Shown: positions 1-13,636, counted from the first letter of the stretch. The stretch: 64,000 nt of DNA from Candidatus Dadabacteria bacterium (GCA_022822065.1 JAJECI010000001.1:23141-87140), one strand, 5' to 3'. The notes: a model not told the origin generated them from the sequence alone. A program made the numbers and translations.

Positions 1-1220
1 AGAAAATCCAGAGTGAGGTGAAGCACCCCGGAGACCTCCTCTCGTATCTGGTCGGGTCGGCAGAATATGTGAGCGTCGTCCTGGGAGAACCCTCTCACTC
101 TCAGAAGACCGTGAAGAACCCCCGAGCGCTCGTACCTGTACACGGTTCCTATCTCCGCCCACCTGATCGGCAGGTCCCTGTAGCTTCTCGTTTTTGACTT
201 GTAGATCAGTATGTGGAAGGGGCAGTTCATTGGCTTTACCTGGTAATCGGAGTTTTCAACCTCCATGCACGAGAACATGTTCTGCGAGTAGAAATCCACG
301 TGACCGCTCGTGCGCCAGAGATCGAGCTTGGCCATATGCGGGGTGTAGAGCAGCTCGTAACCTTTGGAGACATGCTCCTGCTTCCAGAAATCCTCTATCA
401 CACTCCTTACCTTAGCCCCCCTCGGATGCCAGAGGATAAGGCCGGGACCTATCTCGTCGTTCACGCTGAAAAGATCAAGCTCCCTTCCAAGCTTGCGGTG
501 GTCCCTTTTCTTGGCCTCCTCAAGGTCGCGCAGATACTTGCGCAAGTCCTTTTTGTCCCAGAAGGCCGTTCCGTAAATTCTCTGGAGCATCGGGTTGTTC
601 TCGTTGCCCCTCCAGTAAGCCCCGGCGGAACTCGTGAGCTTAAAGGCCTTTATGAGACCGGTTGAGGGAAGATGGGGTCCCCTGCAGAGATCATACCAGT
701 CAGTCTGATCGTATATGGTTATCTCCTCCCCTTCGGGAAGGTCGTTTATTATCTCAACCTTGTAGTTCTCCTTTATCCCGGAGAAAGTGGCGATGGCCTC
801 CTCCCTCGTGACCGTTTTCCTCGTAAGAGGCCGGTTCTTCTTTATTACCTCAAGCATCTTCCCTTCGATGTTCTCAAGGTCCTCAGGAGTGAAGCCCCTT
901 TCGAAATCAAAGTCGTAGTAAAACCCGTTCTCTATCACGGGACCTATGGTGACCCGGGCCTCGGGGAAAAGAGACTGGACGGCTTCGGCCAGGACATGGG
1001 CCGCGGTGTGCCTAAGGAGCCCCAAAGACGTTTCGGTATTGCTTTTTACGGGCAAAAGATCGCAGTCGCCCTCAAGACGGTGCCAGAAATCAACGATCTG
1101 GCCGTCTATGGCGGCGCCTACGGTGCGCTTGTCTCCGTCAAGCTCCGCCAGCACTTCCCCAACGGTGATTCCCGAAGAAAACGTCCCCTGCTTCGCGTCG
1201 ATATTTACCTGTATATCCAA
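1..1220 (-). CDS. thrS: Threonyl-tRNA synthetase, N-terminal ~400 aa (the gene runs off the window start).
   Basis: The minus-strand translation has a TGS-like N-terminus (…VGEVLAEL…IDGQIVDFW…) and class-II aaRS motifs (HRKLGRELDLF, MNCPFH, RVRGFSQDDAHIF). The ORF is open at position 1. The start is probably a TTG near 1220, since there is no in-frame ATG. The provided + strand ORFs 213..665 and 672..1397 are antisense artefacts. Confidence 0.85.
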   Translation of the reverse strand, partial: MDIQVNIDAKQGTFSSGITVGEVLAELDGDKRTVGAAIDGQIVDFWHRLEGDCDLLPVKSNTETSLGLLRHTAAHVLAEAVQSLFPEARVTIGPVIENGFYYDFDFERGFTPEDLENIEGKMLEVIKKNRPLTRKTVTREEAIATFSGIKENYKVEIINDLPEGEEITIYDQTDWYDLCRGPHLPSTGLIKAFKLTSSAGAYWRGNENNPMLQRIYGTAFWDKKDLRKYLRDLEEAKKRDHRKLGRELDLFSVNDEIGPGLILWHPRGAKVRSVIEDFWKQEHVSKGYELLYTPHMAKLDLWRTSGHVDFYSQNMFSCMEVENSDYQVKPMNCPFHILIYKSKTRSYRDLPIRWAEIGTVYRYERSGVLHGLLRVRGFSQDDAHIFCRPDQIREEVSGVLHLTLDF

Positions 1221-1242
1221 CCGATTCGTCCTTTGACATACA

Positions 1243-1317
1243 TGGTGAGCACGGCAGGATTTGAACCTGCGACCCCTTGCACGTCAAGCAAGTGCTCTGC
1301 CACTGAGCTACGTGCTC
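1243..1317 (-). tRNA. tRNA-Val, anticodon GAC, CCA encoded.
   Basis: The reverse complement GAGCACGTAGCTCAGTGGCAGAGCACTTGCTTGACGTGCAAGGGGTCGCAGGTTCAAATCCTGCCGTGCTCACCA folds as a cloverleaf. It has a 7-bp acceptor stem, a GCTC/GAGC D-stem, the anticodon loop TTGACGT and a GGTTCAAATCC T-arm. Confidence 0.9.
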
Positions 1318-1384
1318 AAAAACCTGATATTGTCTTTAATTATCGCATATTGTCAATAACTGCGGGGACGCTTGAGAATGACGG

Positions 1385-2341
1385 TGGTTTCGGGTAGTTT
1401 CACCATTCAGTCAAAGCATCCCGCAAAAACGGGAATCAAGTGGCGGAACCATTCGCAAAACTATACTCAACACGGATTTCATCGGATTCGCAGAATCCAC
1501 CAGAGGCAAGGTAAGAGACATCTACGATCTCGGCGAGCGTATCCTGATGATAGCCACCGACCGCATCTCGGCCTTTGACGTGATACTCCCAAACGGAATA
1601 CCCGCAAAGGGCGAGGTTCTAAACCGCATCTCCGAGTTCTGGTTCAGAAAAACAGAGCACATCATCCCGAACCACATGATCTCGACGGACCCCGGGGATT
1701 TTCCCGAGCCTTTCGGGAACCACGCCGAGACGCTTGCAGGCCGCTCCATGCTCGTGAAAAAGACCGATCCGCTTCCCGTGGAATGCGTCGTGAGAGGTTA
1801 TATAAGCGGCTCGGGGTGGGAGGAGTACAAAAAAACCGGCTCCGTCTGCGCGATACCCCTCGGTGAGGGCCTCGTTGAATCCCAGAAACTTCCGGAACCC
1901 GTCTTCACCCCGTCAACCAAGGCCGAGCAGGGAACCCATGACGAGAACATAACGTTCGGGGAGGTGCAGGATATGATAGGCGGGGAACTCGCGGGCAAGG
2001 TGCGGGACGCAAGCATCGAGATCTACGCTGCCGCCGCCGGAATAGCCGAGGAGAAGGGAGTGATAATAGCCGATACGAAATTCGAGTTCGGCATAGACCG
2101 CGACACTGAAGAACTCATCCTGATAGACGAAGCCCTGACGCCGGATTCTTCAAGGTTCTGGCCCCTGGCGGACTACGCCCCCGGCGGACCACAGACGAGT
2201 TTTGACAAGCAGTTCGTAAGGGACTACCTCAAGCAGACAGGCTGGGACCGGAATCCCCCGGCTCCCGAGCTTCCGCCCGACATAGTGAGGAAAACAAGCG
2301 AAAAGTATCTTGAGATGCTCAGGCTTTTCTGCGGAGGATAG
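1385..2341 (+). CDS. purC: Phosphoribosylaminoimidazole-succinocarboxamide (SAICAR) synthase, long form.
   Basis: Motifs are …[26 protein letters not shown]… and …IADTKFEFG…. The listed ATG at 1547 is internal, because the conserved GKVRDIY block lies upstream. The frame opens after a stop at 1379-1381. The only canonical upstream start is GTG at 1385, so the true start is uncertain. The stop is TAG at 2339-2341. Confidence 0.8.
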
Positions 2342-2345
2342 AACT

Positions 2346-2519
2346 TTGGCAAAGACGAGTTCTCCATGCAACGGCATATGCATAATGGACGAGGATACGG
2401 GGCTCTGCGTCGGATGTCTCCGCACAAGCGACGAGATAGCGAACTGGGAAGAATACTCAGACGAGCAGAGGACTGAAGTCATGCGTGAAATAACGCGGCG
2501 GGAAGCGGAGCAGGACTAG
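2346..2519 (+). CDS. Small Cys-rich DUF1289-family protein.
   Basis: Motif CNGICIMDEDTGLCVGCLRTSDEIANW (CxGxC…CxGCxRTxxEIxxW). The likely start is TTG at 2346, 7 nt after a GGAGGA (2333-2338). The listed ATG at 2310 would overlap the purC 3' end. Confidence 0.6.
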   Translation: MAKTSSPCNGICIMDEDTGLCVGCLRTSDEIANWEEYSDEQRTEVMREITRREAEQD

Positions 2520-3331
2520 TGAAGACCGTGAGCATCCTTGGCTGCGGCTGGCTCGGAGAGCCGCTCGCATACTCCCTCAAGGAAGCGGGTTTTTCGGTAA
2601 GAGGGTCGGTCAGGAAACCCGAGGGGCTCACCGCCCTTTCGCAAAAGGGAATAGAATCCTACCTTATAGACATAGCCCCCGAGGTAAACGGAGAGGAGAC
2701 AGACGAATTTTTCTCCTCGGACGTTCTTTTCATAAACTTTCCCCCCGAGCGAAGAGACGACATCGAGACTTACCACGAAAAACAGATCGAAAACCTCATC
2801 GGGGCGATACCGAACCCCCAGGGGAAAATGGTCATTTTTGCCAGTTCGACCTCCGTTTACCCGAATACAAACGGGGTCGTGCGCGAAGAGGACTCCCTCT
2901 ATCCTGACAAACCGTCGGGAAAGGCTCTTCTGCGCGTGGAGAGGCTTCTCACGGACCACCCTGAAATCGATACGACCGTCATACGTTTTTCGGGGCTCAT
3001 AGGCTACGACAGGGCGCCCATAAAATCGATCAGAAGAAAAAAACTGGTGCTTAACCCCAACTGCCCCCTTAACCTCATACACCGCGATGACTGCATAGGA
3101 ATCATTCGAAGCATAATAGATCTTGACGTAAGAAATACCATCCTCAACGCCACCTGCGACGAACATCCCACAAGAAGGGAATATTACTCGCGCGAAGCTC
3201 AAAAATACGGAATCCCGCCGCCGCTTTTCGAAACGGAAAATCCGCCGGAGTACAAGATAGTCTCAAACGAAAAGTTGAAGAGAACACTCGGGTACAGATT
3301 GATTTATCCGGACCCGCTCGGCATACCCTAG
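2519..3331 (+). CDS. NAD(P)-binding Rossmann-fold oxidoreductase, SDR/epimerase-like (YeeZ-like).
   Basis: N-terminal ILGCGWLG glycine-rich dinucleotide-binding motif, GTG start, 270 aa. Confidence 0.5.
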   Translation: MKTVSILGCGWLGEPLAYSLKEAGFSVRGSVRKPEGLTALSQKGIESYLIDIAPEVNGEETDEFFSSDVLFINFPPERRDDIETYHEKQIENLIGAIPNPQGKMVIFASSTSVYPNTNGVVREEDSLYPDKPSGKALLRVERLLTDHPEIDTTVIRFSGLIGYDRAPIKSIRRKKLVLNPNCPLNLIHRDDCIGIIRSIIDLDVRNTILNATCDEHPTRREYYSREAQKYGIPPPLFETENPPEYKIVSNEKLKRTLGYRLIYPDPLGIP

Positions 3332-3526
3332 AGAATGGACAGATTCCCCAGACAATGGGACATGATCTGAAAAGGGATAATTTCCTTTATTTTTAATAAG
3401 GCGCACATCTGGTATTCTTCATTCTTGGCAAACTACTTGTAGTTGCCTGTGCTTAATCTATTCTCAAAGTTGCGCTTCAGGGTCTAATTCACAGTTTTCG
3501 ATCGAGTTGCTTCTTTGGTTCACAAA

Positions 3527-3555
3527 TTGATAAGCTGAAACATACTTCTTAACAT
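3527..3555 (+). promoter_or_regulatory. Putative sigma70 promoter for the DUF262/DUF1524 gene.
   Basis: TTGATA (3527-3532), 17-nt spacer, TAACAT (3550-3555). An AGGAG RBS at 3571-3575 precedes the TTG start at 3583. Confidence 0.3.
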
Positions 3556-3582
3556 GTACGGATTTTTGTAAGGAGAAAATCC

Positions 3583-5691
3583 TTGAAAGCTTCAGAAGCT
3601 CAACTTTTTGGGGTTCTCAAGAAATCACCTCAATTCATCATTCCCATCTACCAGCGTACTTACTCGTGGAGAGAAAAAGAATGTCGTCAGCTATGGCATG
3701 ACATTGTCCGAGCTGGAAATAACGATGCGATACCGTTGCACTTTTTTGGTTCCATTGTCTACATCCAAGAAGGTCTTTCATTAATCACCCATCAAGAACC
3801 GCTACTCGTTATTGACGGCCAACAACGCCTAGCAACAGTTATGATACTCTTGGCCGCTTTGGCAGAAGCACTCGGCGACGAAAGCGAACCTATCGAGGGC
3901 TTTTCTGCCAGCAAACTACGCAATTACTATCTCTTAAACCCTAGCGAATCAGGTGAACGTCGCTATAAACTTCTCCTCTCCCAAACTGACAAAGAGACCC
4001 TTATTTCAATTGTTGATAAACGACAACTCCCTATGTCATACTCGCTTCGGCTCAAAAAGAACTTCGATCTATTCAAAGACCTTATTGCTGAACAACAAGG
4101 AGATTTAACCCCAATTTATAAAGGGGTGGCAAAATTAATTATCGTCGAAGTCGCCCTCGATCGTGATCAAGATAATCCACAGCTTATCTTCGAAAGTCTG
4201 AATTCGACAGGTCGCGAACTTAGCCAAGCAGATCTGGTCAGAAATTTTATTCTCATGGAACTGAAACCAGAAGCTCAAACCCGCATCTATAAAGAATTTT
4301 GGCAACCTATGGAGATAATGTTCGGACAAGAAGCGTATGAAACGGACTTCAACGAATTTATGCGATATTACTTGACTGTGAAAACAGGGGAAATTCCACG
4401 TCGCAATGATGTGTATGAAGTTTTTAAGGAATACGCCAGATCACAAAAGATTGCCGAGGAGAATATTGAGACTCTGGTCAACGATATTTACAGCTTTGCT
4501 AAGTTTTACTGTGCAATGGCTCTTGACCAAGAAACAGACTCTGACCTCAAACTCGCTTTTCATGACCTTCGAGAGTTGAAGATGGGCGTAGTCTACCCAT
4601 TCCTGCTGGAATTATACAAAGACTATATTGACGGACTGCTGACCAAAGAAAACTTTCTTAGGGCTATCAGGTTGATTGAGTCTTATCTTTTCCGGCGTTC
4701 TATATGCACGATCCCGACCAACTCGCTTAACAAAACTTTTGCCACGTTTACCAAGTCCTTGCAAAAAAACCGATACATCGAAAGTATTAAAGCACATTTC
4801 TTATTGTTGCAATCCTATCGCCGTTTTCCAGATGACCAAGAATTCAAACGTGATTTGCAGACTCGCAATCTGTATAACTTCAGAAATCGTAGCTACTGGC
4901 TACGTCGATTGGAAAACCACGATAAAAAAGAACGCGTTCCAGTCGACGAGTACACAATCGAGCATATTATGCCCCAGAACAAAGCCCTGCCCAATGGTTG
5001 GAAGGAAGCTCTCGGCAACGAATGGGAACGTGTTCATCAGACCTATTTGCATACATTGGGAAACTTGACGCTTACTGGGTACAACTCCGAGTATAGTGAT
5101 CACTCGTTCAAAGAGAAATGCAATATGGAAGGTGGTTTCAAGCACAGCCCTCTTAAGGTCAACTCAGGACTTAGTGAATGGAAAACGTGGGACGAAAATT
5201 CAATCAAATCCCGTGCTGAAATTTTAGCGGAGCAAATGGTGAAAATCTGGCAGGCACCCGTATTATCTGCCGAAATTCTTGAGAATTATAAGCCAAAAGA
5301 AAACAGAGCAATTGAGTACTCAATAGATAACTATTCGAATCTGTCGGACCCCCGAATTCGTGAACTCTTTGAAGCGTTTCGCAAAGAGGTTTTAGGGTTT
5401 GATCCATGCGTCTCAGAGGAACGCAGAAAAAACTATATCGCATACAAAGCGGAAACCAATTTCGTATATCTCAATCCGCAAGTAAATCAGCTTCGACTAA
5501 ACCTTATTATCAGCTTTTCAGACATAAATGACCCACGCGGTATTTGCGAGAATGTTCTTCCCAGCCAAGGACATAACCAAGCAAGCCGTGAAGTTGTTGT
5601 CAGGTTTAGAGAAATCGATAAATTACCTTACGTAGTCGGGTTAGCGCGTCAAGCCTTTGAAACACAGCTCGGAAATGGAGACAACACATAG
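3583..5691 (+). CDS. DUF262 (ParB-like NTPase/nuclease) plus DUF1524 (HNH-like) fusion protein. GmrSD/SspE/BrxU-family putative modification-dependent (type IV) restriction endonuclease.
   Basis: The N-terminus has IPIYQRTYSW and DGQQR motifs (DUF262). The C-terminus has …YTIEHIMPQN…LGNLTLTGYN… (DUF1524 HNH-like). It is 702 aa with a TTG start and an RBS, and sits in a lower-GC region. Confidence 0.75.
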   Translation: MKASEAQLFGVLKKSPQFIIPIYQRTYSWREKECRQLWHDIVRAGNNDAIPLHFFGSIVYIQEGLSLITHQEPLLVIDGQQRLATVMILLAALAEALGDESEPIEGFSASKLRNYYLLNPSESGERRYKLLLSQTDKETLISIVDKRQLPMSYSLRLKKNFDLFKDLIAEQQGDLTPIYKGVAKLIIVEVALDRDQDNPQLIFESLNSTGRELSQADLVRNFILMELKPEAQTRIYKEFWQPMEIMFGQEAYETDFNEFMRYYLTVKTGEIPRRNDVYEVFKEYARSQKIAEENIETLVNDIYSFAKFYCAMALDQETDSDLKLAFHDLRELKMGVVYPFLLELYKDYIDGLLTKENFLRAIRLIESYLFRRSICTIPTNSLNKTFATFTKSLQKNRYIESIKAHFLLLQSYRRFPDDQEFKRDLQTRNLYNFRNRSYWLRRLENHDKKERVPVDEYTIEHIMPQNKALPNGWKEALGNEWERVHQTYLHTLGNLTLTGYNSEYSDHSFKEKCNMEGGFKHSPLKVNSGLSEWKTWDENSIKSRAEILAEQMVKIWQAPVLSAEILENYKPKENRAIEYSIDNYSNLSDPRIRELFEAFRKEVLGFDPCVSEERRKNYIAYKAETNFVYLNPQVNQLRLNLIISFSDINDPRGICENVLPSQGHNQASREVVVRFREIDKLPYVVGLARQAFETQLGNGDNT

Positions 5692-6068
5692 AATAAGTTA
5701 GCTTCTGATCTTACGAGACAGAACCACCCCGTTCGTGTTTCTACATGCAAAGTCATTCAGGGCACTCTTGATTCCAATGCATGAATAATACCTCTCAAGC
5801 CACCTTTTAACCTTTAAAATTGTATTAAATATTGAAAACTTTCTTGGAATCCTAAAACATTTTTATACTATTTTCGCTGTCAAGATGCTTTGCAAATAGT
5901 CTTTAAGCACTTGTGCAATCCCGACCAACCATAGGCCGATTGGATGTCACCAGCGTTTCACCGCTGGACAGCAACAAAGTTCCACAGAAGAGGGAATTCC
6001 CGAATTTTCTTGAATTTTCCCGTTTTTTCTCACAAAATAATCAGCAACAACCAAGACGTGAGTCCGCT

Positions 6069-6248
6069 ATGTCCGATGAAATTATGACTCTCAAAGAAAT
6101 AGCTGAATACCTGAAACTGAAGGAGAAAACCGCTTACCGGCATGCTGCCGAAGGTATTTTGCCAGGGTTCAAAGTTGGTGGCGCATGGAGATTCAGAAAG
6201 GCGGACATCGATGCGTGGATCGAAAAAAACAAGAATTCCGCACAATGA
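6069..6248 (+). CDS. Small helix-turn-helix DNA-binding protein (excisionase/AlpA/MerR-like HTH_17 type), putative regulator coupled to the methyltransferase.
   Basis: MSDEIMTLKEIAEYLKLKEKTAYRHAAEGILPGFKVGGAWRFRKADIDAWIEKNK (60 aa). Its stop (6246-6248) overlaps the MTase ATG (6245) as ATGA. The listed longer ORF 5913..6248 has no support upstream of this Met. Confidence 0.55.
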   Translation: MSDEIMTLKEIAEYLKLKEKTAYRHAAEGILPGFKVGGAWRFRKADIDAWIEKNKNSAQ

Positions 6249-7783
6249 CGAAAAAGAGTAAAACCTATCCCGTAATTGATCTGTTTGCTGGGCCCGGAGG
6301 ATTGGGCGAAGGATTTGCATCTCTCAAAAATAAAAACGGCAAAGCTGCATTTGAGTCAGTTGCATCAATAGAAACGGACAAAACTGCTCATGACACATTG
6401 ACGCTCCGACATTTCTTCCGCTGCTTCCGGGAAGACCAGGTCCCCGAGGCCTATTACAGATATGTGTCTGGAGAAATTTCAAAGTCAGATTTAATCGAAC
6501 TTTATCCAAAGCAATGGAATATCGCCTGTGAAAGCTCATTGAATATAACTCTTGGAAGCGAAAACCACGAACTTGTAAAAAAGGCGATAAAAAAGCGTCT
6601 GGCTAGATCAAAAAACTGGGTTCTTGTTGGTGGGCCACCGTGTCAGGCTTATTCTCTTGTCGGACGTTCCCGCATGATGAGAATAGATGGATTTGAAAAA
6701 GATGAGAGACATTTTCTCTACCGCGAATACCTGAAGATAATTGTTGATCACAGGCCTCCGGTTTTCGTCATGGAGAACGTAAAGGGGCTTCTTTCTTCCA
6801 AGACCGATGGGGAATTTGTCGTTCAGAAAATTGTCGATGATCTTTCCAGTCCTATAAAAGCAGTTACGTCAAGACAGAATGGACTACGATACAACCTTTA
6901 CCCGCTTAGCTCTGCCCGGCTTTTCAAGCACGAAGTTGATCCTTGGGAATTCGTTGTCAGGGCTGAGGCTTATGGCATACCCCAAGCACGGCACCGGATG
7001 TTCGTTGTTGGCATCAGGGAAGATATTGATATCAGCCCATCCCCCCTTTCTCCTTCTGACCCTCCGAATGTAAAAAAGGTTATCGGCAACCTGCCTAGGA
7101 TCAGAAGTGGTGTATCTAAAGGCAGCGACTCTCCAGAAAGGTGGCGTTCTATTGTCTCAGAAGCTGCAGAAAGCACATGGCTGAGACAGTTAAGATCTTC
7201 TGATTATGAACGGCTAGTCTCAAAACTTGAGGCTGTAATTTCAAAAATTTCTCATGCTCCGCAACGAACAAGTGCAAAAACGTATAAATCGACACCTGTT
7301 CTGAATGGGTGGTTTTACGATGAACGACTGAAATCTCTTCTCTCACATGAAGCGCGCTCTCACATGCCCAGTGATCTTCATAGGTATCTTTTTGTATCAA
7401 CTTATGCTTCTGTTTTCAGATATTCACCAAAGCTTACAGATTTCCCAGATGCTCTTTTACCGAAGCATCGAAGTGCGTCTCGAGAAAGAAATCCTGTAGC
7501 TTTTTCTGATCGTTTCAGAGTTCAGCTTTGTGAGCGGGTAGCTACAACTATAACTTCACACATTTCAAAGGATGGTCATTATTTCATCCATTATGATCCG
7601 GTTCAATGTCGCAGCCTAACTGTTCGTGAAGCGGCAAGGTTGCAGACCTTTCCGGATAATTATCATTTTGAGGGACCCAGAACATCGCAATACCATCAAA
7701 TTGGTAACGCTGTTCCTCCCTATCTCGCAAGGCAGATTGCAGAAGTAATAAAAGAAGTCATGGACACACTGCCCGAAGACTGA
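6245..7783 (+). CDS. dcm: DNA (cytosine-5)-methyltransferase.
   Basis: Motifs are I DLFAGPGGLGEGF, IV GGPPCQAYS, VI VFVMENVKGL and X QIGNAVPPYLA. The start is taken at MTKKSKTYPVIDLF (6245). The listed start at 6185 overlaps the HTH gene. Confidence 0.9.
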   Translation: MTKKSKTYPVIDLFAGPGGLGEGFASLKNKNGKAAFESVASIETDKTAHDTLTLRHFFRCFREDQVPEAYYRYVSGEISKSDLIELYPKQWNIACESSLNITLGSENHELVKKAIKKRLARSKNWVLVGGPPCQAYSLVGRSRMMRIDGFEKDERHFLYREYLKIIVDHRPPVFVMENVKGLLSSKTDGEFVVQKIVDDLSSPIKAVTSRQNGLRYNLYPLSSARLFKHEVDPWEFVVRAEAYGIPQARHRMFVVGIREDIDISPSPLSPSDPPNVKKVIGNLPRIRSGVSKGSDSPERWRSIVSEAAESTWLRQLRSSDYERLVSKLEAVISKISHAPQRTSAKTYKSTPVLNGWFYDERLKSLLSHEARSHMPSDLHRYLFVSTYASVFRYSPKLTDFPDALLPKHRSASRERNPVAFSDRFRVQLCERVATTITSHISKDGHYFIHYDPVQCRSLTVREAARLQTFPDNYHFEGPRTSQYHQIGNAVPPYLARQIAEVIKEVMDTLPED

Positions 7784-8196
7784 TGACTGATATTTTGAGC
7801 AAAGAAAAGAGAAGCTGGAACATGTCCCGAATCCGTTCGGGAAACACAAAACCGGAAATTGCGGTTCGCCGTATTCTTCATTTCCTCGGATACAGGTTCA
7901 GACTGCACAGAAAGGACCTGCCCGGAAAGCCGGACATTGTTTTGCCGAAATACAAAACCGTTATCTTTGTTCATGGCTGTTTCTGGCACAGACATGAAAA
8001 CTGCCGGTACTCCTACAACCCGAAATCACGCACAAAATTCTGGCAGAATAAATTCGCAGCCAATATTGAGCGGGATAAACAGAATGCAGCAAAACTGGAA
8101 ATACTTGGTTGGCGACGGCTTGTGATCTGGGAATGTGAGACAAAGAACCCGGAGAATATTCGCTCCATTATTGAACGGTTCTTTGAAAAAATTTGA
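7783..8196 (+). CDS. vsr: Very short patch repair endonuclease.
   Basis: RSGNTKPE…GKPDIVLPKY…VIFVHGCFWHRHENC signature. The ATG overlaps the dcm stop (TGATG at 7781-7785). Confidence 0.9.
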   Translation: MTDILSKEKRSWNMSRIRSGNTKPEIAVRRILHFLGYRFRLHRKDLPGKPDIVLPKYKTVIFVHGCFWHRHENCRYSYNPKSRTKFWQNKFAANIERDKQNAAKLEILGWRRLVIWECETKNPENIRSIIERFFEKI

Positions 8197-8342
8197 GATT
8201 TAAAGGCCTTCTGCTCACATATATTAGCCCTCTTACTTTCATATATTCACTAATTTTCGACATATATACTGCATATATATCTGCATAGACGTATCAAATC
8301 TACCCTTAAAATGATACATTTGGCATTTATATATGAAATATA

Positions 8343-8371
8343 TTGACAATATTACATCGTTGGTGTATACT
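8343..8371 (+). promoter_or_regulatory. Near-consensus sigma70 promoter driving the four-gene candidate operon.
   Basis: TTGACA (8343-8348), 17-nt spacer, TATACT (8366-8371). An AGGAGA RBS at 8383-8388 precedes the ATG at 8395. It lies in an AT-rich region with CATATAT-type repeats. Confidence 0.5.
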
Positions 8372-8394
8372 TACCCTTAAACAGGAGACTGGTA

Positions 8395-8625
8395 ATGCGC
8401 GATAAACGTAAAAAATTTGTTGAGCTGGCAGAAGCCAGAGTGAACCGTGCAGTTAAAGATATCCGGCTTATCGGCAATCTCTCCAACCGAGGTTCTTATG
8501 AATATTCAGAGCAAGATGCGCGCGAGATTTTCAAGGCACTCCAAAAGGAACTTGACGCTGCAAAAAGCAGGTTCTCTGAAAATGGTGAGGGTGGAGTCGA
8601 TTCATTTCGACTGAGCAGTCGCTGA
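8395..8625 (+). CDS. 76-aa hypothetical protein, charged and probably helical or coiled-coil. It is the first gene of the candidate operon.
   Basis: Good RBS and promoter. No recognisable motif. A 6-bp-stem hairpin (8595-8612) lies in the 3' end. Confidence 0.5.
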   Translation: MRDKRKKFVELAEARVNRAVKDIRLIGNLSNRGSYEYSEQDAREIFKALQKELDAAKSRFSENGEGGVDSFRLSSR

Positions 8626-8672
8626 TATTTGAAACGCAGACAGTAAAGAACATTTGTTTATAAGAGGTACAA

Positions 8673-10598
8673 TTGATGAGTGAAATACGACTTGAATTTT
8701 TGCCCAATGTAGGAGGGGAAGCCGAGGGCCTCAGTGATGGGGGCATAGAAACTTTTCGCGAAAATCCATTCGCCGCTGTTGCCCGTGAAACAGGCCAGAA
8801 CAGCCGCGACGCCCGCGACGATACTAATAACCCAGTAAAACTTACTTTCGACATCGTGACGCTAGAGTCAGAGAAATTTCCGTCTATCGAGCAGTACAGA
8901 GAAGCCGCCGAACTTTGTCTGGATAAATCATCCGCGGCAAATAAAGAGAAGGAAACGGGCTTCTTCGGGAATGCTTGCAAAATTCTTAATGCCGAAAATA
9001 TCAGGATTCTCAGAATTTCAGATTTCAATACAAAAGGCGTTCGTGGACCATGTAAAGAGGGTACCCCCTTCCATACGCTTGCTAAAACTGACGGCGTCAG
9101 TGAAAAGGAGGACAGAGACTCTGGTGGTTCTTTCGGCATAGGCAAGAACGCAACCTTTGCCCTTTCAGATATCCAGACTGTCTTCATTTCAACTCTCTAC
9201 ACAGATGAGAACGGAAACGGTCAGGTTCTCTGTATGGGAAAAACATTATTTATTTCTCATAGAGGAAACGATGGGGAGGAGAAAAGGGGGAAAGGATACT
9301 GGGGCAAGTCAGAAAGATATATGCCGTTAGACAGCCCCAGTGAAATTCCGGAATGGCTTCTGCGTGATAAACAGGGAACCTCAATTTTCTCCATCTGCAT
9401 GCGTGACAACCGGACAGACTGGCGCTACGAAATGGCAGCAGCAATACTGATCAATTTTTTCTGCTCTATAGAGCGCCAAGAAATGGAATTTGAAATTGAT
9501 GAGGGGTCGATCAAAATTAATCGTGGAACACTTCAGGCACTTTTCAGCAACAGCCGGGTCAACAAAGCTGTAGATGAGCTTAATGCACGTGTCGCGTTTG
9601 AAACAGCGAGAACCCTCCATGCCTGTCTGATTGATGAGCAGACTTTCATAGAAAATCTGGAGATCGAAGACTTGGGAACGGTCCGCATGCATATGCTGAT
9701 GCGTGACGGCCTTGGATATACAATCGGTATCATCCGTAACGGCATGTATATCACCGACAATCTCTCCCATTTTAACGAACCCTTCAAACGCTTTCCGCTC
9801 CACCGTGATTTTGCTGTAATTATTGAGCCCGTCGGTAAAAGAGAAGGTGAGTGGTTCAAACGACTTGAGAATCCCAGTCATAACAGTCTGTCTGCAGAGG
9901 GAATAACCGACCCTGAACTCAGAGCCAAGGGGCGTAAAGCTTTTGAGAAACTTGCAAAAAAAATACGCAGCAGAATCCAAGCGTTGGCCAAGTCACAGCC
10001 GTCGAATACACTGGAGCTCGATGAACTGAATGATTTCTTCGCCTCGGATGAAACAAGAAGCGAAGATGATGCCGGAATGGAAACAGATCCCCAATCAAAA
10101 AAGCCCACGCCTGTCAGGCCTGTAAAACCCAAGCCACCAACTCCTGATTCCCGCAAACAAACTTCACCAGATGACCCTCCTATCCCCGGACCCGAACCCG
10201 GACCTGAACCAGTTGATGAACCCTCTCCAGATCCGGAGCCACGACCGGAGCCCGGACCAGTACCACATCCAAGGAAGATCATGAAACCAGTTGAATTGAT
10301 ATCAGAACGTGCCCTGATACCGGACAAGTCAAATGCGAGCAGAAGGCAGTTCAGATTCACTTCGCCCATTTCTGCAGAGATCGTGCTCTATGCCGATGCA
10401 ACCGGCTTGACAAACTCTGAACGTCTAAACCCAGTAAGCACATCGGAAGGCCGAATCGAGAACAGTGCTATTGAAGTGTCTTGCACAGCGAATCAGCGTA
10501 ACAGCATTGATGTGGTCTTTGATGCCCCTTATACCGGCCCTGTCGAAATCTTAGCTTACCAAGTTGAAGAAGAACAACAGGCAGGAGAGTCGGCATGA
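8673..10598 (+). CDS. GHKL-superfamily (MORC/MutL/Hsp90-like, HATPase_c_3-type) ATPase with a Pro/Glu/Gly-rich linker and a C-terminal domain of unknown function.
   Basis: Bergerat-fold motifs are the N-box AVARETGQNSRDA (ExxxNSxDA, nt ~8787-8816), a G1-like ISDFNTKGVRG and the G2 box GGSFGIGKNA (nt ~9124-9150). A PEPGPEP-rich linker is at ~10080-10280. The start is TTG at 8673 or ATG at 8676, with an AAGAGG RBS. The stop overlaps the next gene's ATG (ATGA at 10595-10598). Confidence 0.7.
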   Translation: MMSEIRLEFLPNVGGEAEGLSDGGIETFRENPFAAVARETGQNSRDARDDTNNPVKLTFDIVTLESEKFPSIEQYREAAELCLDKSSAANKEKETGFFGNACKILNAENIRILRISDFNTKGVRGPCKEGTPFHTLAKTDGVSEKEDRDSGGSFGIGKNATFALSDIQTVFISTLYTDENGNGQVLCMGKTLFISHRGNDGEEKRGKGYWGKSERYMPLDSPSEIPEWLLRDKQGTSIFSICMRDNRTDWRYEMAAAILINFFCSIERQEMEFEIDEGSIKINRGTLQALFSNSRVNKAVDELNARVAFETARTLHACLIDEQTFIENLEIEDLGTVRMHMLMRDGLGYTIGIIRNGMYITDNLSHFNEPFKRFPLHRDFAVIIEPVGKREGEWFKRLENPSHNSLSAEGITDPELRAKGRKAFEKLAKKIRSRIQALAKSQPSNTLELDELNDFFASDETRSEDDAGMETDPQSKKPTPVRPVKPKPPTPDSRKQTSPDDPPIPGPEPGPEPVDEPSPDPEPRPEPGPVPHPRKIMKPVELISERALIPDKSNASRRQFRFTSPISAEIVLYADATGLTNSERLNPVSTSEGRIENSAIEVSCTANQRNSIDVVFDAPYTGPVEILAYQVEEEQQAGESA

Positions 10599-11428
10599 AG
10601 CTGAATGAGAGAATGCGTTATCCGCACCCTGTTCTAAGCAAATTTTCCTCCGATTATACGACTGGGGAGTTTTCTGCGGCTTTCTCTCATCAGGTTACTG
10701 ATGACGACCAGTTGAAAATTGCTTCAGACTTGTCCACTGACTGTGATGAATTGAGAGTTCTTATCGAAGATCAGAAGGCTTCCGCAGGATATTTTGTTGT
10801 ATGCAGACCCACATATTTCAACCACCTTCAGCTCGTTCCACTCGGAGAGTCAGAAAAATTCTTTGAATTGAGTCAACTTTATGGAGCGGTTTCTCTGCGT
10901 CCCGTAATATGGACCCTTGAAGATGTCGAAAATTATTCGAGCCCTTTAATTGACGCTGAATTCGGCAAGGAAATTGTCATAACAAAAGGTGTAGTTATAG
11001 CTATGGGGCGAGAGTTCCAGTTTTCTATTGATCAACAGAAATTCAAACCATTTGAAACCATATTCGACCTAGCTCAGAGCAAAGACATCAAACCGGGAAT
11101 GATCGAAGTTGATCCTGAAGGGGACAAAATTACAATTCTAGCAGAACCGGAAACCTACAATTCTATCGCCAACATGCGAAATATCCTTCAGGGACGCACA
11201 ATTCTTATTAACGCTGTCTACATGCCAGCCGTCATGGACATTGTCTCAAGACTTCAGACAGACGGCCCAAGCTTGGAGAGCAAACGCTGGTACAGAGTTT
11301 TCAAGGCAAAATGCGACGATATTGGCATCAATCCGTCAGATAAGACCTTCTTGCCTCTTGAGGTTGCACAGGAACTTCTGAGAGGCCCTCTAAAGGCAAC
11401 CATACAAGTCATGGAGTCCATGAGATGA
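10595..11428 (+). CDS. 277-aa hypothetical protein, third gene of the candidate operon.
   Basis: Translationally coupled on both sides by ATGA overlaps. I recognise no conserved motifs. Confidence 0.5.
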   Translation: MKLNERMRYPHPVLSKFSSDYTTGEFSAAFSHQVTDDDQLKIASDLSTDCDELRVLIEDQKASAGYFVVCRPTYFNHLQLVPLGESEKFFELSQLYGAVSLRPVIWTLEDVENYSSPLIDAEFGKEIVITKGVVIAMGREFQFSIDQQKFKPFETIFDLAQSKDIKPGMIEVDPEGDKITILAEPETYNSIANMRNILQGRTILINAVYMPAVMDIVSRLQTDGPSLESKRWYRVFKAKCDDIGINPSDKTFLPLEVAQELLRGPLKATIQVMESMR

Positions 11429-12180
11429 ATGAACCTCTTAAGTATCTCTCGGACAGGGCGTTGTCAGAACTTAGAAACTCTATCTCGGAAAATATTGAGC
11501 GGTATACAGGCAATGGTTTTGAGGAATATGCTTTTCTGCCGTCATGGGATATCTCTCTGAAAATCAACTTCGACAAGAATCTCCTTGCTACGCTTGATAC
11601 GAAACGGCAACGCGCAATTGTCGAGATTGATCTTGCAAATTCAAAAATTGTCGGCAAGGCACTGGAAAACCTGACGCCATCACTGGCGAATGAAGAGCGC
11701 ATCTGGGTTCGTCTTTCTCATCTGGAAGCATTTGAATACAGTAGAATACGCTGGCTTACAGGAAAAGAAGGTGAGTATCTTGTTTCCTCCATAGAAAGAC
11801 ATTTCTTTGCGCCCACTCAAACAATCATCCGTGATGACCATGCACTGTCGCGACTATGGTGGAACTATCATATTGCACGAACCTGCATGCCAGACAATAT
11901 AGATAAGGCTTTAGAGCTTATCCTGAAAACCGCTGACATCAGAAGTAACTTTGTCGAGCGAATCTGGATGAGCAGCCGCAGAAACATCGCAGGTGCTGTT
12001 CTGCGGGCAATGGATACACAGGAATGGATTACCGATGCCGAACAGAACTTTCGCGAGTTCATGAAAGTACTCAACCGTCAAGGCGGCGGAATCGTTTTTG
12101 AAGCCCTGAGCGAGTCAGAAGCCGATGCATTTGTTCAGGAATGTACAGACCGAGCAATGAACATAATGGGAGCAGTTTAA
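11425..12180 (+). CDS. 251-aa hypothetical protein, last gene of the candidate operon.
   Basis: ATGA overlap with the upstream gene. No recognisable motifs. An AT-rich non-coding region follows. Confidence 0.5.
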   Translation: MNEPLKYLSDRALSELRNSISENIERYTGNGFEEYAFLPSWDISLKINFDKNLLATLDTKRQRAIVEIDLANSKIVGKALENLTPSLANEERIWVRLSHLEAFEYSRIRWLTGKEGEYLVSSIERHFFAPTQTIIRDDHALSRLWWNYHIARTCMPDNIDKALELILKTADIRSNFVERIWMSSRRNIAGAVLRAMDTQEWITDAEQNFREFMKVLNRQGGGIVFEALSESEADAFVQECTDRAMNIMGAV

Positions 12181-12430
12181 TTCTAAATATTATTCCAATT
12201 CAGGGTTGTGCCCTCAGCGGACTCCAAGAAAAAATAGACGTTTCACAAGGCTCGGGTTCGTCTGCGCCCGCCGTCGATTTGTCATTCCGTTTGCATACCC
12301 CCGTTCGCCACGAGGCTTGTTTGCCCTTGCTTTTATGTTCTTAAAAGTTATTTTTTCGTTTTTTCTTCATTCATTATGGATAATAATTCACCTGAAAATA
12401 GTAAAAATATCAGAGAATTAGAACAAAAAA

Positions 12431-12459
12431 TTGATATTTCTTCAATATACCGTTATTAT
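12431..12459 (+). promoter_or_regulatory. Putative sigma70 promoter for the Panacea-domain pair.
   Basis: TTGATA (12431-12436), 17-nt spacer, TATTAT (12454-12459). Confidence 0.35.
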
Positions 12460-12488
12460 CATGACCGAAAGTCAAATGGGAGAGTCCG

Positions 12489-12962
12489 GTGGCACGGATT
12501 AAAAGTACCGTTCAGGATGTCGCAAAATATATCCTGAAGAGGCTTGCTTCTAAGGGTGAAGATAACATCACTTCTTGGAAGCTTCAAAAATTAGTTTATT
12601 ACTGTCAAGCGTGGTCGTTAGTCTGGGAGGAGGCCCCTCTTTTCTTGGAAGAAATACAAGCTTGGGCCGATGGGCCGGTCTGTCCTGACCTTTACCATAA
12701 ACATAAGCGTAAATTCAGGCTTGACCCTGATGATATTAAGGGAAACACAAGGAAGTTGTCTCCCAGTCAGCGAGAAACGATTAATGCTGTTTTGGACTAC
12801 TACGGAGATAAAACAGGACGCTACTTAAGCGACCTTACACATCTTGAAAGACCATGGATTGAGGCTCGTGCTGGTTTACAACCTGGGGAGAGAGGTAGTG
12901 TTGTAATTGAGTATAACGACATGGTTGATTACTATGGCGGCTTAATTAATAGTGCCGAGTAG
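12489..12962 (+). CDS. Panacea-domain (DUF4065, SocA/GepA-like) protein, putative antitoxin.
   Basis: …SWKLQKLVYYCQAWSLVWEEAPLFLEEIQAWADGPVCPDLY… matches the DUF4065 core. GTG start, 157 aa. Confidence 0.65.
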   Translation: MARIKSTVQDVAKYILKRLASKGEDNITSWKLQKLVYYCQAWSLVWEEAPLFLEEIQAWADGPVCPDLYHKHKRKFRLDPDDIKGNTRKLSPSQRETINAVLDYYGDKTGRYLSDLTHLERPWIEARAGLQPGERGSVVIEYNDMVDYYGGLINSAE

Positions 12963-13407
12963 TAAAAAGAAGAAACTAACTAGAAAACCTAAGCAAGACC
13001 AAAACCCAGCAACTCTTTCAAAGACCCCTAAATCGATTTCCACAAGTGTTAGCAATGAACACTTCCGCTGGGATGTAAGGAACGCTGACTTTGATGGCGA
13101 GTACGGATGGAAGAAGGTTGAGATAAAAACTTTGTTCCGAGAAATCATTCCTAAACTCAGACAGTTTGAAAGCATGAAGTGGGGAGAAATTGAGGGAGAG
13201 GATAGTCATTTTGTTGATGTGGATAAGTGTAGTACAGAAGCTCAGAAACGCTTGAAAAGAATTAAACTAGATGACTTGGAACAGCTGTTCTCTTTGCGAA
13301 TAGGGGGCAAAAAGCGGATATTTGGCTGGCGGGAAAAATCAGTTTTTCATGTGCTTTGGTGGGATCCAGACCATAAAGTTTATCCGTCAAAAATGAAGTA
13401 CACTTAA
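12952..13407 (+). CDS. 151-aa basic hypothetical protein, putative toxin partner of the Panacea protein.
   Basis: Its GTG start overlaps the upstream gene by 11 nt. It has a Lys-rich N-terminus and a conserved-looking FHVLWWDPDHKVYP block. Confidence 0.4.
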   Translation: MPSSKKKKLTRKPKQDQNPATLSKTPKSISTSVSNEHFRWDVRNADFDGEYGWKKVEIKTLFREIIPKLRQFESMKWGEIEGEDSHFVDVDKCSTEAQKRLKRIKLDDLEQLFSLRIGGKKRIFGWREKSVFHVLWWDPDHKVYPSKMKYT

Positions 13408-13636
13408 TTCCTAACTGACATTGTATACAATCTCCCAAAGTCCCCTTTTCAAAAATCCCCTGAATTTTTGGCTAGCTATGTATGTTATTCCCTCTGAAAG
13501 CTGTTGAGAAAAACCTTAAAAAAGGGGAAAATAGACGGAAGTGGAAAGCGAAATTGCACAATATCGTTTTCGGGTGGGAGCAAAAACCATAAAATTTCCA
13601 GACACGGAGCGTAATTTCTCCCGCGCGGCAGCCTAG

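Follow-up and report, generated by a model that had tools for sequence, protein, structure and literature searches.

The GHKL ATPases of the paraMORC group were predicted to work in restriction-modification (R-M) systems together with the cytosine methylase Dcm and the endonuclease Vsr (Iyer et al., 2008; PMC2292703), and a paraMORC3 protein, the Shedu type I-D protein VcSduA, has been shown to defend Vibrio cholerae (PMC12137116). Two catalogue entries are also relevant: PDC-M33, a computational candidate in PADLOC that is defined by the genes A, B, and C, and DUF6339, a Pfam family with no described function. Here, we describe a locus that belongs to both entries in a stretch of 64,000 nucleotides (nt) from a Candidatus Dadabacteria bacterium (GCA_022822065.1 JAJECI010000001.1:23141-87140), which is called the window below and from whose first letter all positions are counted. 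In this locus, a gene for a putative GHKL ATPase (A) is preceded by a gene for a protein of 76 amino acids (aa), termed s, and followed by two open reading frames (ORFs), B (10595-11428) and C (11425-12180). Judged by its sequence, the locus is a member of the catalogued, uncharacterised candidate PDC-M33/DUF6339, with the same A-B-C order. The PADLOC definition includes neither gene s nor a linkage to a methylase, and a literature search returned no report that names PDC-M33 or DUF6339 or that deals with this cassette.

The reading favoured here, tentatively and with a probability of roughly 45%, is that s-A-B-C constitutes a methylation-coupled, restriction-like defence module of a paraMORC-like GHKL type, with B and C as its fast-evolving sensor/effector pair. 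The methylase would mark the host DNA, and A would act as an ATP-driven, dimerising clamp on DNA, as do MutL, MORC, and the Shedu GHKL protein VcSduA. B and C would form a complex with each other and presumably with A, and the two would supply recognition of, and/or attack on, DNA that does not carry the mark. In the window, where a helix-turn-helix (HTH)-Dcm-Vsr unit is followed by s-A-B-C, the cassette would take the place of the restriction component. A restriction-like module is the best supported interpretation because minimal loci (the window type and locus L031) contain no other nuclease, and because the cassette is found in defence-island and prophage-cargo settings and its B and C genes evolve fast. 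The analysis established the coding status and family membership of the genes, their coupling, a natural B-C fusion, the methylase linkage, and carriage by a temperate phage, and it recognised no nuclease in the cassette. Compared with the catalogued candidate, the new elements are the fourth gene, the fusion, the quantified methylase linkage, a second cassette type, the phage-borne copy, and the lack of a structural relative for C; DUF6339 itself gains a Dcm-side context, a fusion partner in B, and a confident model. The cassette and the methylase unit beside it comprise the following features.

6069-6248, + strand: HTH_17/excisionase-type small DNA-binding protein (Pfam HTH_17, 5.5e-18)
6245-7783, + strand: DNA (cytosine-5) methyltransferase (Dcm), family D2, approximately 516-532 aa (Pfam DNA_methylase, 7.6e-49; TIGR00675, 1.9e-44)
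7783-8196, + strand: Vsr very-short-patch-repair (T:G mismatch) endonuclease (Pfam Vsr, 9.1e-33; TIGR00632, 149 bits against a cut-off of 97.85)
8343-8371, + strand: sigma-70-like promoter candidate for s-A-B-C (TTGACA-17-TATACT, 11/12, consensus match only)
8395-8625, + strand: gene s, 76 aa (AGGAG at 8384-8388; homologues directly upstream of A in related loci)
8676-10598, + strand: gene A, putative GHKL (paraMORC-like) ATPase of approximately 640 aa (PADLOC PDC-M33A, 7.9e-97)
10595-11428, + strand: gene B, 277 aa, PDC-M33B family (PADLOC, 2.7e-43; ATGA overlap with A)
11425-12180, + strand: gene C, 251 aa, DUF6339/PDC-M33C (Pfam DUF6339, 9.1e-42; PADLOC, 2.5e-29)

Linkage to a 5-methylcytosine (m5C) methylase is the most informative fact about the cassette. 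Forty-eight informative loci, including the window, were scanned with hidden Markov models (HMMs) built from the window and locus proteins, with a distance limit of 10 kb for Dcm. Within this limit, Dcm was found in 42 of the 48 loci, and in 28 of the 30 whose sequence extends for at least 5 kb in both directions. Forty-one of the 48 contain Vsr, nearly always together with Dcm, and the cassette shares this cytosine methylase and Vsr-family neighbourhood, as well as a widespread but patchy occurrence, with the paraMORC/MORC R-M systems (Iyer, Abhiman and Aravind, 2008; PMC2292703). An EcoRII-C nuclease (PF09019, 1e-66) was identified in 22 loci, and elsewhere the nuclease partner is of the NgoFVII type or the McrBC type, or is absent. 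The methylase can lie upstream or downstream of the cassette, co-oriented or divergent, and represents at least four methylase families, and A-B-C is colinear in every related locus with enough sequence. The linkage spans cassette subfamilies that are approximately 25% identical, four phyla, and one phage. That the linkage survives while the family, position, and orientation of the methylase change speaks for a functional coupling and against hitch-hiking.

Exchange of the methylase is visible even between close relatives. Methylases of the D1 family (M.EcoRII-like) nearly always occur with EcoRII-C, whereas those of the D2 family, the window type, never do, and the two are interspersed on a tree of the concatenated A, B, and C proteins. 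The window (D2) is the sister of locus L001 (D1), with cassette identities of 79-88%. Such a swap suggests that the cassette responds to the mark, or to the methylase, in a generic way and does not read one particular sequence. The D2-type genome loci (L002, L006, and L009-L011) share no neighbour besides Dcm, Vsr, s, A, B, and C. Locus L031 consists of Dcm-A-B-C with overlapping genes and has housekeeping genes on either side, no Vsr, and no nuclease; in distant DUF6339 members (L026-L030), the cassette adjoins Dcm and an NgoFVII-type nuclease.

An earlier note on this DNA, made from the sequence alone, proposed that B and C are tightly coupled to the ATPase gene, each starting inside the stop codon of the gene before it. 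The sequence bears this out: position 10595 reads GGC-ATG-A, where the stop of A (TGA, 10596-10598) overlaps the start of B (ATG, 10595-10597), and position 11425 reads GAG-ATG-A, where the stop of B (TGA, 11426-11428) overlaps the start of C (ATG, 11425). Shine-Dalgarno-like purine stretches stand ahead of both starts (AGGAGAG at 10582-10588 for B and GGAG at 11411-11414 for C). Of 66 related loci, 62 have an overlap of 1-14 nt between A and B, and 57 have one of 1-8 nt between B and C, the other B/C junctions having gaps of at most 3 nt. Kept across so many loci, the junctions are therefore a family trait and not chance, and together with the natural B-C fusion described below they uphold the proposed coupling. 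Each of the two frames contains one stop, the terminal one, compared with 12-17 stops in the other two frames. The ratio of nonsynonymous to synonymous substitution rates (dN/dS) relative to the closest locus (L001, from a Thermodesulfobacteriota metagenome-assembled genome, MAG) is 0.35 for B and 0.39 for C, and both genes are under purifying selection. An artefactual or non-coding origin of the two ORFs is ruled out by the frame statistics, the dN/dS values, and the homologues, all of which bear out the earlier view that B and C are genuine coding genes.

The description of B and C as ORFans, on the other hand, has to be given up. A homologue-cluster search that covered 5.8 billion proteins yielded 120 clusters for B, nearly all of approximately 276 aa, and 361 for C, and an exhaustive HMM search for DUF6339 returned 1216 representatives at 50% identity. 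The earlier note would have doubted the two genes if no other genome conserved them; homologues are abundant, and the claim that these are real genes is not refuted. C matches Pfam DUF6339 (PF19866) over residues 69-238 with 143.2 bits, against a gathering score of 23.2. In PADLOC-DB v2.0.0, the models PDC-M33A, PDC-M33B, and PDC-M33C all match, contiguously on the + strand and in the order A-B-C, and this match to a catalogued candidate agrees with the suggestion that the genes might form a defence operon. The homologues come from Thermodesulfobacteriota, Alpha- and Gammaproteobacteria, Bacteroidota, and a Clostridium phage, and no match was found among 72,556 plasmids. In terms of annotation, the "two ORFans" are replaced by PDC-M33/DUF6339 members of a four-gene cassette that includes s.

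Gene s was recognised as the fourth member by ORF clustering of 21 genome loci, where 17 of the 19 complete loci carry a homologue of s immediately 5' of A. It has 737 homologue clusters, with a Pfam domain in none of them, and the handful of source names displayed is either generic or inconsistent; the exact sequence of s (8395-8625) was not present in the protein collection searched. With a dN/dS of 0.023, s is the most constrained gene of the cassette, and its identity to the window copy is 59-75% where that of A is 24-38% and B and C are 33-39% identical or unalignable. Approximately one third of the loci lack s; a fusion of s to A in loci without a separate s was ruled out, as the upstream regions concerned are unrelated. 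B and C, in contrast, are the fastest-diverging parts of the cassette (dN/dS 0.35-0.39 vs. 0.02 for s). Fast divergence is typical of components that face a variable target, and it suits a sensor or an effector.

A natural fusion of B and C is found in P0343 (528 aa), of which residues 8-269 align to the B profile (hhalign, 99.1%, E = 1.3e-18) and residues 342-512 constitute DUF6339. The complete temperate phage NatCom_9291 (PV036421.1; host Clostridium innocuum) carries a cassette beside its integrase (locus L099, 1907-11177), in the order s-A-B-C, a 167-aa gene, an HTH-fused Dcm, and McrB-like and McrC genes. A protein with an ABC-3C CTD6 domain comes after the McrB/McrC-like genes of this phage.

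Homologues of s also led to a sister cassette, here called type 2, in loci L093 (9001-12819) and L095 (9001-12594). In Prosthecochloris (L093), HTH_17-Dcm-Vsr-s is followed by proteins of 639, 262, and 236 aa, and in a Bacteroidota MAG (L095), EcoRII-C/Vsr/Dcm is followed by s and proteins of 605, 255, and 262 aa. The type-2 A protein is homologous to A of the window (hhalign, 97%, E = 5e-11) and has kept the ExxxH motif described below. The two downstream proteins (B2 and C2) match their counterparts in the other type-2 cassette (1e-31 to 1e-37) and belong to no Pfam or PADLOC family. Compared with B and C, they gave no match in single-sequence hhalign and weak colinear matches in profile-profile comparison (E = 0.0037 and 0.013 vs. 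0.21 and 0.42 for the cross-pairs), and the type-2 pair would at most be remotely related to B and C. Shared by both cassette types, s and A thus make up the conserved core, and the place of B and C is the part that diverges rapidly or can be exchanged. On a 3,913-nt metagenome contig (L033), C is preceded by P0119, a 359-aa protein annotated as a cytosine methylase that matches B at 55% identity over 38% of B's length; either s, A, and the greater part of B have been deleted here, or the assembly is chimeric.

The earlier note saw no nuclease, TIR, SIR2, transmembrane, or HTH signature in B or C, and the searches of Pfam, NCBIfam, and PADLOC, the hydropathy profiles, and Foldseek agree. The only matches of B and C in the three family collections were DUF6339, PDC-M33B, and PDC-M33C, and profile searches of Protein Data Bank (PDB) sequences with B and C found no match. 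The maximum Kyte-Doolittle hydropathy over 19 residues is 1.33 for B and 0.55 for C, and by hydropathy no transmembrane-like segment occurs in s, A, B, or C. Foldseek comparison of the AlphaFold2 models of B and C with the PDB, a step that the earlier note had proposed, brought up no enzyme fold.

The model of C is confident, with a predicted local distance difference test score (pLDDT) of 92.5 and a predicted template modelling score (pTM) of 0.89, and consists of a small N-terminal beta-hairpin and approximately 15 helices. Foldseek found nothing significant for it, the best E values being 1.4 (PDB) and 2.0 (BFVD). Among 120 diverse members, the conserved residues of C are Y27, W94, H99, Y105, R109, W110, H126, F128, R143, L144, W145, W146, D171, R173, R179, R210, and N217, a set that is rich in Arg, Trp, His, and Tyr and has almost no acidic residues. 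As far as the sequences allow a judgement, this conserved patch resembles a surface for binding nucleic acids or bases more than it does a metal-dependent nuclease, although a confident model with no structural relative would also be compatible with a new catalytic fold. B was modelled with a pLDDT of 85.4 and a pTM of 0.62 and comprises an N-terminal peptide, a beta-sandwich region (approximately residues 26-183), and a helical C-terminal domain (185-276). The N-terminal peptide (P10-H11-P12-V13-L14 ... D20) is highly conserved and has low model confidence. Foldseek of the B model against the PDB gave only generic beta-sandwich matches of the immunoglobulin/fibronectin type III-like kind (E ≥ 0.018), and inspection by eye of the conserved residues of B and C found no family-wide HEPN, HD, or PD-(D/E)xK motif. 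The earlier proposal that B and C are effector or partner proteins of a defence operon is a plausible hypothesis.

In A, the motifs R-E39-xxx-N43-xx-D46-A, D117-x-N-T-x-G122, G151-G-S-F-G-I-G-K158, and L398-E-x-P-x-H403 are invariant across 16 sequences of 35-79% identity, and the GHKL motifs I (ExxxNxxD), II (DxGxG-like), and III (GxxGxG lid) are present in order and invariant in all of them. A proline-rich linker (approximately residues 470-545) leads to a conserved C-terminal domain of approximately 95 aa, whose invariant residues include no cluster of acidic residues or His. None of the 16 members matches Pfam HATPase_c, and a profile search of PDB sequences with A gave no match. With E. 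coli HtpG, hhalign aligned only the GxxGxG lid of A, and weakly (E = 0.013); hhalign with E. coli MutL found nothing (E = 0.36), and the score against the sacsin ATP-binding domain was 16.8 bits compared with a cut-off of 50. No significant similarity of A to a known GHKL family or structure was therefore found, and A is best called a putative GHKL ATPase, recognised at the level of motifs.

Compared with the described systems, the locus combines familiar and unfamiliar traits. The ExxxH of A, downstream of the ATPase, resembles the motif of paraMORC2, but A, which is known as a putative GHKL protein by its motifs and lacks a Pfam HATPase_c match, is not placed in paraMORC1-5. The paraMORC systems use superfamily 2 helicases and restriction endonuclease-fold, HNH, TIR, or fused nucleases, whereas the partners s, B, and C match no known domain. 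No linked helicase or nuclease of this kind accompanies the cassette in the window, where only Vsr is adjacent; other loci have EcoRII-C, NgoFVII-type, or McrBC-type nucleases. VcSduA likewise has a GHKL ATPase that is thought to control a DNA-directed effector via a clamp-like middle region (PMC12137116); it is, however, a single protein with a fused DUF4263 PD-(D/E)xK nuclease, and here the partners are separate and a methylase is linked. Membership of A in Shedu (SduA, DUF4263) was rejected, as PADLOC gave only 12.2 bits (E = 0.022) over residues 401-449 and A has neither a Pfam match nor a nuclease domain.

The HEF_HK/Response_reg_2 pairs (Bellieny-Rabelo et al., 2021; PMC8011034) also join a GHKL protein (HATPase_c_3) to a linked partner and are enriched near C-5 cytosine methylases, but they consist of two genes instead of four, and their families PF19191 and PF19192 match none of A, B, and C. 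In E. coli, the GHKL ATPase MutL is tied to Vsr and Dcm, and the TGATG overlap in the window resembles the classical dcm-vsr arrangement; MutL gave no hhalign match with A, however, and the cassette also occurs without Vsr. MADS shares a MAD1-like HTH protein and a methylase in a multi-gene system, and the small HTH protein of the window (6069-6248) scores 82.7 bits with the NCBIfam model for MAD1 (cut-off 80). Membership in MADS was rejected, since only the HTH protein fits and A, B, and C match no PADLOC mad model. A classical Type II R-M system was rejected as well: the methylase is present, but no cassette gene has a recognisable nuclease fold.

Several observations count against a restriction-like module. 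The proteins s, B, and C and the region of A outside its GHKL part all lack a recognisable nuclease or other catalytic domain, the family-wide conserved residues of C are nearly free of acidic ones, unlike those of a metal-dependent nuclease, and the GHKL identity of the ATPase is one of motifs only. Approximately half of the loci (22/42) already hold a complete Type II system with EcoRII-C, and others hold NgoFVII- or McrBC-type nucleases; in such loci, the role of "the" restriction enzyme does not call for the cassette. Cassettes as similar as those of the window and L001 accompany unrelated D2 and D1 methylases, which a sequence-specific restriction enzyme tied to a single methylase would not readily explain. 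In addition, the literature search gave no experiment on any cassette member.

The main rival explanation, which we regard as unlikely, is that the cassette is an accessory to m5C systems, with no restriction activity of its own. It might serve as a MutL-like helper of Vsr in T:G very-short-patch repair, as a generic handler of m5C problems (deamination or trapped covalent methylase-DNA adducts), or as an ATP-driven helper that unites sites for multi-site nucleases such as EcoRII or NgoFVII. The high frequency of Vsr among the informative loci, its place immediately upstream of the cassette in the window, and the stimulation of Vsr by E. coli MutL, a GHKL ATPase (cited in PMC2292703), are all consistent with such a role, as is the failure to find a nuclease in the cassette. 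That four kinds of m5C module are accompanied, with the methylase swapped between close relatives, likewise fits an m5C-generic function. However, the cassette occurs with Dcm but without Vsr (L031, L078, and the NgoFVII-type loci), it has a promoter-like site of its own, and in many loci it is divergent from Dcm-Vsr or several kb away from it. Vsr genes, for their part, are widespread without this cassette. Fast-evolving B and C beside a near-invariant s would also be unusual for a housekeeping-type repair factor, and the context is one of defence islands and a prophage cargo region.

A second, quite improbable, explanation keeps a damaging activity but moves it elsewhere: B and C would be adaptors or regulators, and the damage would come from A, through E399-x-x-x-H403 or the C-terminal domain, or from a neighbouring nuclease (Vsr, EcoRII-C, NgoFVII, or McrBC-type). 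The conserved residues of B and C show no obvious catalytic constellation, the ExxxH of A is invariant and retained even in the type-2 cassettes, and most loci contain some nuclease gene. For paraMORC2, a motif of this kind was proposed as a potential substrate site (Iyer et al., 2008; PMC2292703). A borrowed nuclease is at odds with locus L031, which has no nuclease gene beside Dcm-A-B-C, and a role of the C-terminal domain of A is at odds with the lack of an acidic or His cluster among its invariant residues; the fold of C, for which no relative was found, could moreover be a new catalytic one.

It is equally improbable that s-A-B-C reads the m5C state of DNA as a MORC-like machine without a nuclease or, in a related version, that the DUF6339 fold is new and either modifies DNA or acts as a nuclease that needs no metal. 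Reading of m5C may proceed via an Arg/Trp/His/Tyr-rich pocket of the DUF6339 fold or via the methylase itself, and a nuclease-free machine may clamp, compact, or silence unmarked DNA. If true, a nuclease-free m5C reader would be the equivalent in prokaryotes of the tie between MORC ATPases and DNA methylation in eukaryotes, and perhaps its forerunner.

Least probable is that PDC-M33 is a self-contained defence that makes no use of the methyl mark, the proximity of Dcm and Vsr reflecting island clustering or common descent of a mobile island: the PADLOC definition of the candidate is limited to A, B, and C, further defence genes lie close by, and a few loci (L007, L066, L092, and L055) have no methylase in their available flanks, but several methylase-free loci end on the side where the methylase would be expected, 88-93% of the informative loci have an m5C methylase, specifically, as the partner, and this holds across distant subfamilies, phyla, and the phage, and the differing positions, orientations, and methylase families argue for selected proximity and not for one inherited island.

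The surroundings of the cassette in the window can be outlined as follows. HTH_17-Dcm-Vsr forms a second overlapping unit upstream of s-A-B-C, in which the stop codon of the HTH gene (TGA, 6246-6248) overlaps the start of Dcm (ATG, 6245) and the start of Vsr overlaps the Dcm stop by 1 nt. The HTH protein is likely the controller of this methylase operon. The starts given above for the HTH gene (ATG, 6069) and Dcm (ATG, 6245) are the probable ones, the ORFs as listed beginning at 5913 and 6185, respectively, and the listed ORF of A (641 aa) begins at TTG 8673. The promoter candidate sits 24 nt 5' of the start of s. A GmrSD-type (DUF262/DUF1524) Type IV restriction enzyme of 702 aa with a C-terminal DUF5655 (3583-5691, + strand) is encoded directly 5' of the methylase operon, so that a modification-dependent nuclease adjoins an m5C methylase. 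Neither an EcoRII-like ORF nor a recognisable restriction nuclease for the cassette turned up anywhere in the 64 kb of the window. Downstream of C, a SocA/Panacea-domain antitoxin-like gene (12489-12962, + strand) overlaps a gene for a 151-aa MAG6450-family/NsnC-like protein (12952-13407, + strand), and this pair is probably a toxin-antitoxin or small defence module.

All of these defence-type genes lie in a low-GC island at approximately 3000-13500 (guanine-plus-cytosine fraction 0.41-0.46, compared with 0.54-0.57 in the flanks). A tRNA-Val gene (1243-1317, - strand), the only RNA gene nearby, is located approximately 1.7 kb off the left edge of the island. No direct repeats flanking the island were found, the repeat search giving one chance-like repeat of 25 nt.

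In other loci, the cassette is flanked by a Gabija-like AAA_15 and UvrD-like pair and a reverse transcriptase (L095, 12630-18027), by a NACHT protein (L093, 13497-16841), or by Helicase_C/MZB/NERD genes (L097, a Phyllobacterium locus, 1-4669). An HNH_2 endonuclease gene, divergent from the cassette, stands between EcoRII-C and s in L097 (7894-8895) and in a related metagenome contig (L098, 1735-2736, - strand); HNH genes were seen next to paraMORC1 (Iyer et al., 2008; PMC2292703).

If the restriction-like, methylation-coupled reading of s-A-B-C is true, the cassette would represent a widespread methylation-coupled immunity family, given that DUF6339 comprises at least 1216 clusters at 50% identity in several phyla and a temperate phage. 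The ATPase of this family would be only distantly GHKL-like, and its partner proteins would have no known fold or catalytic motif. The locus would provide a concrete, testable case for the paraMORC restriction-modification prediction of 2008 and would show one module working with many cytosine methylases; it might also bring to light a new domain that senses or attacks DNA.

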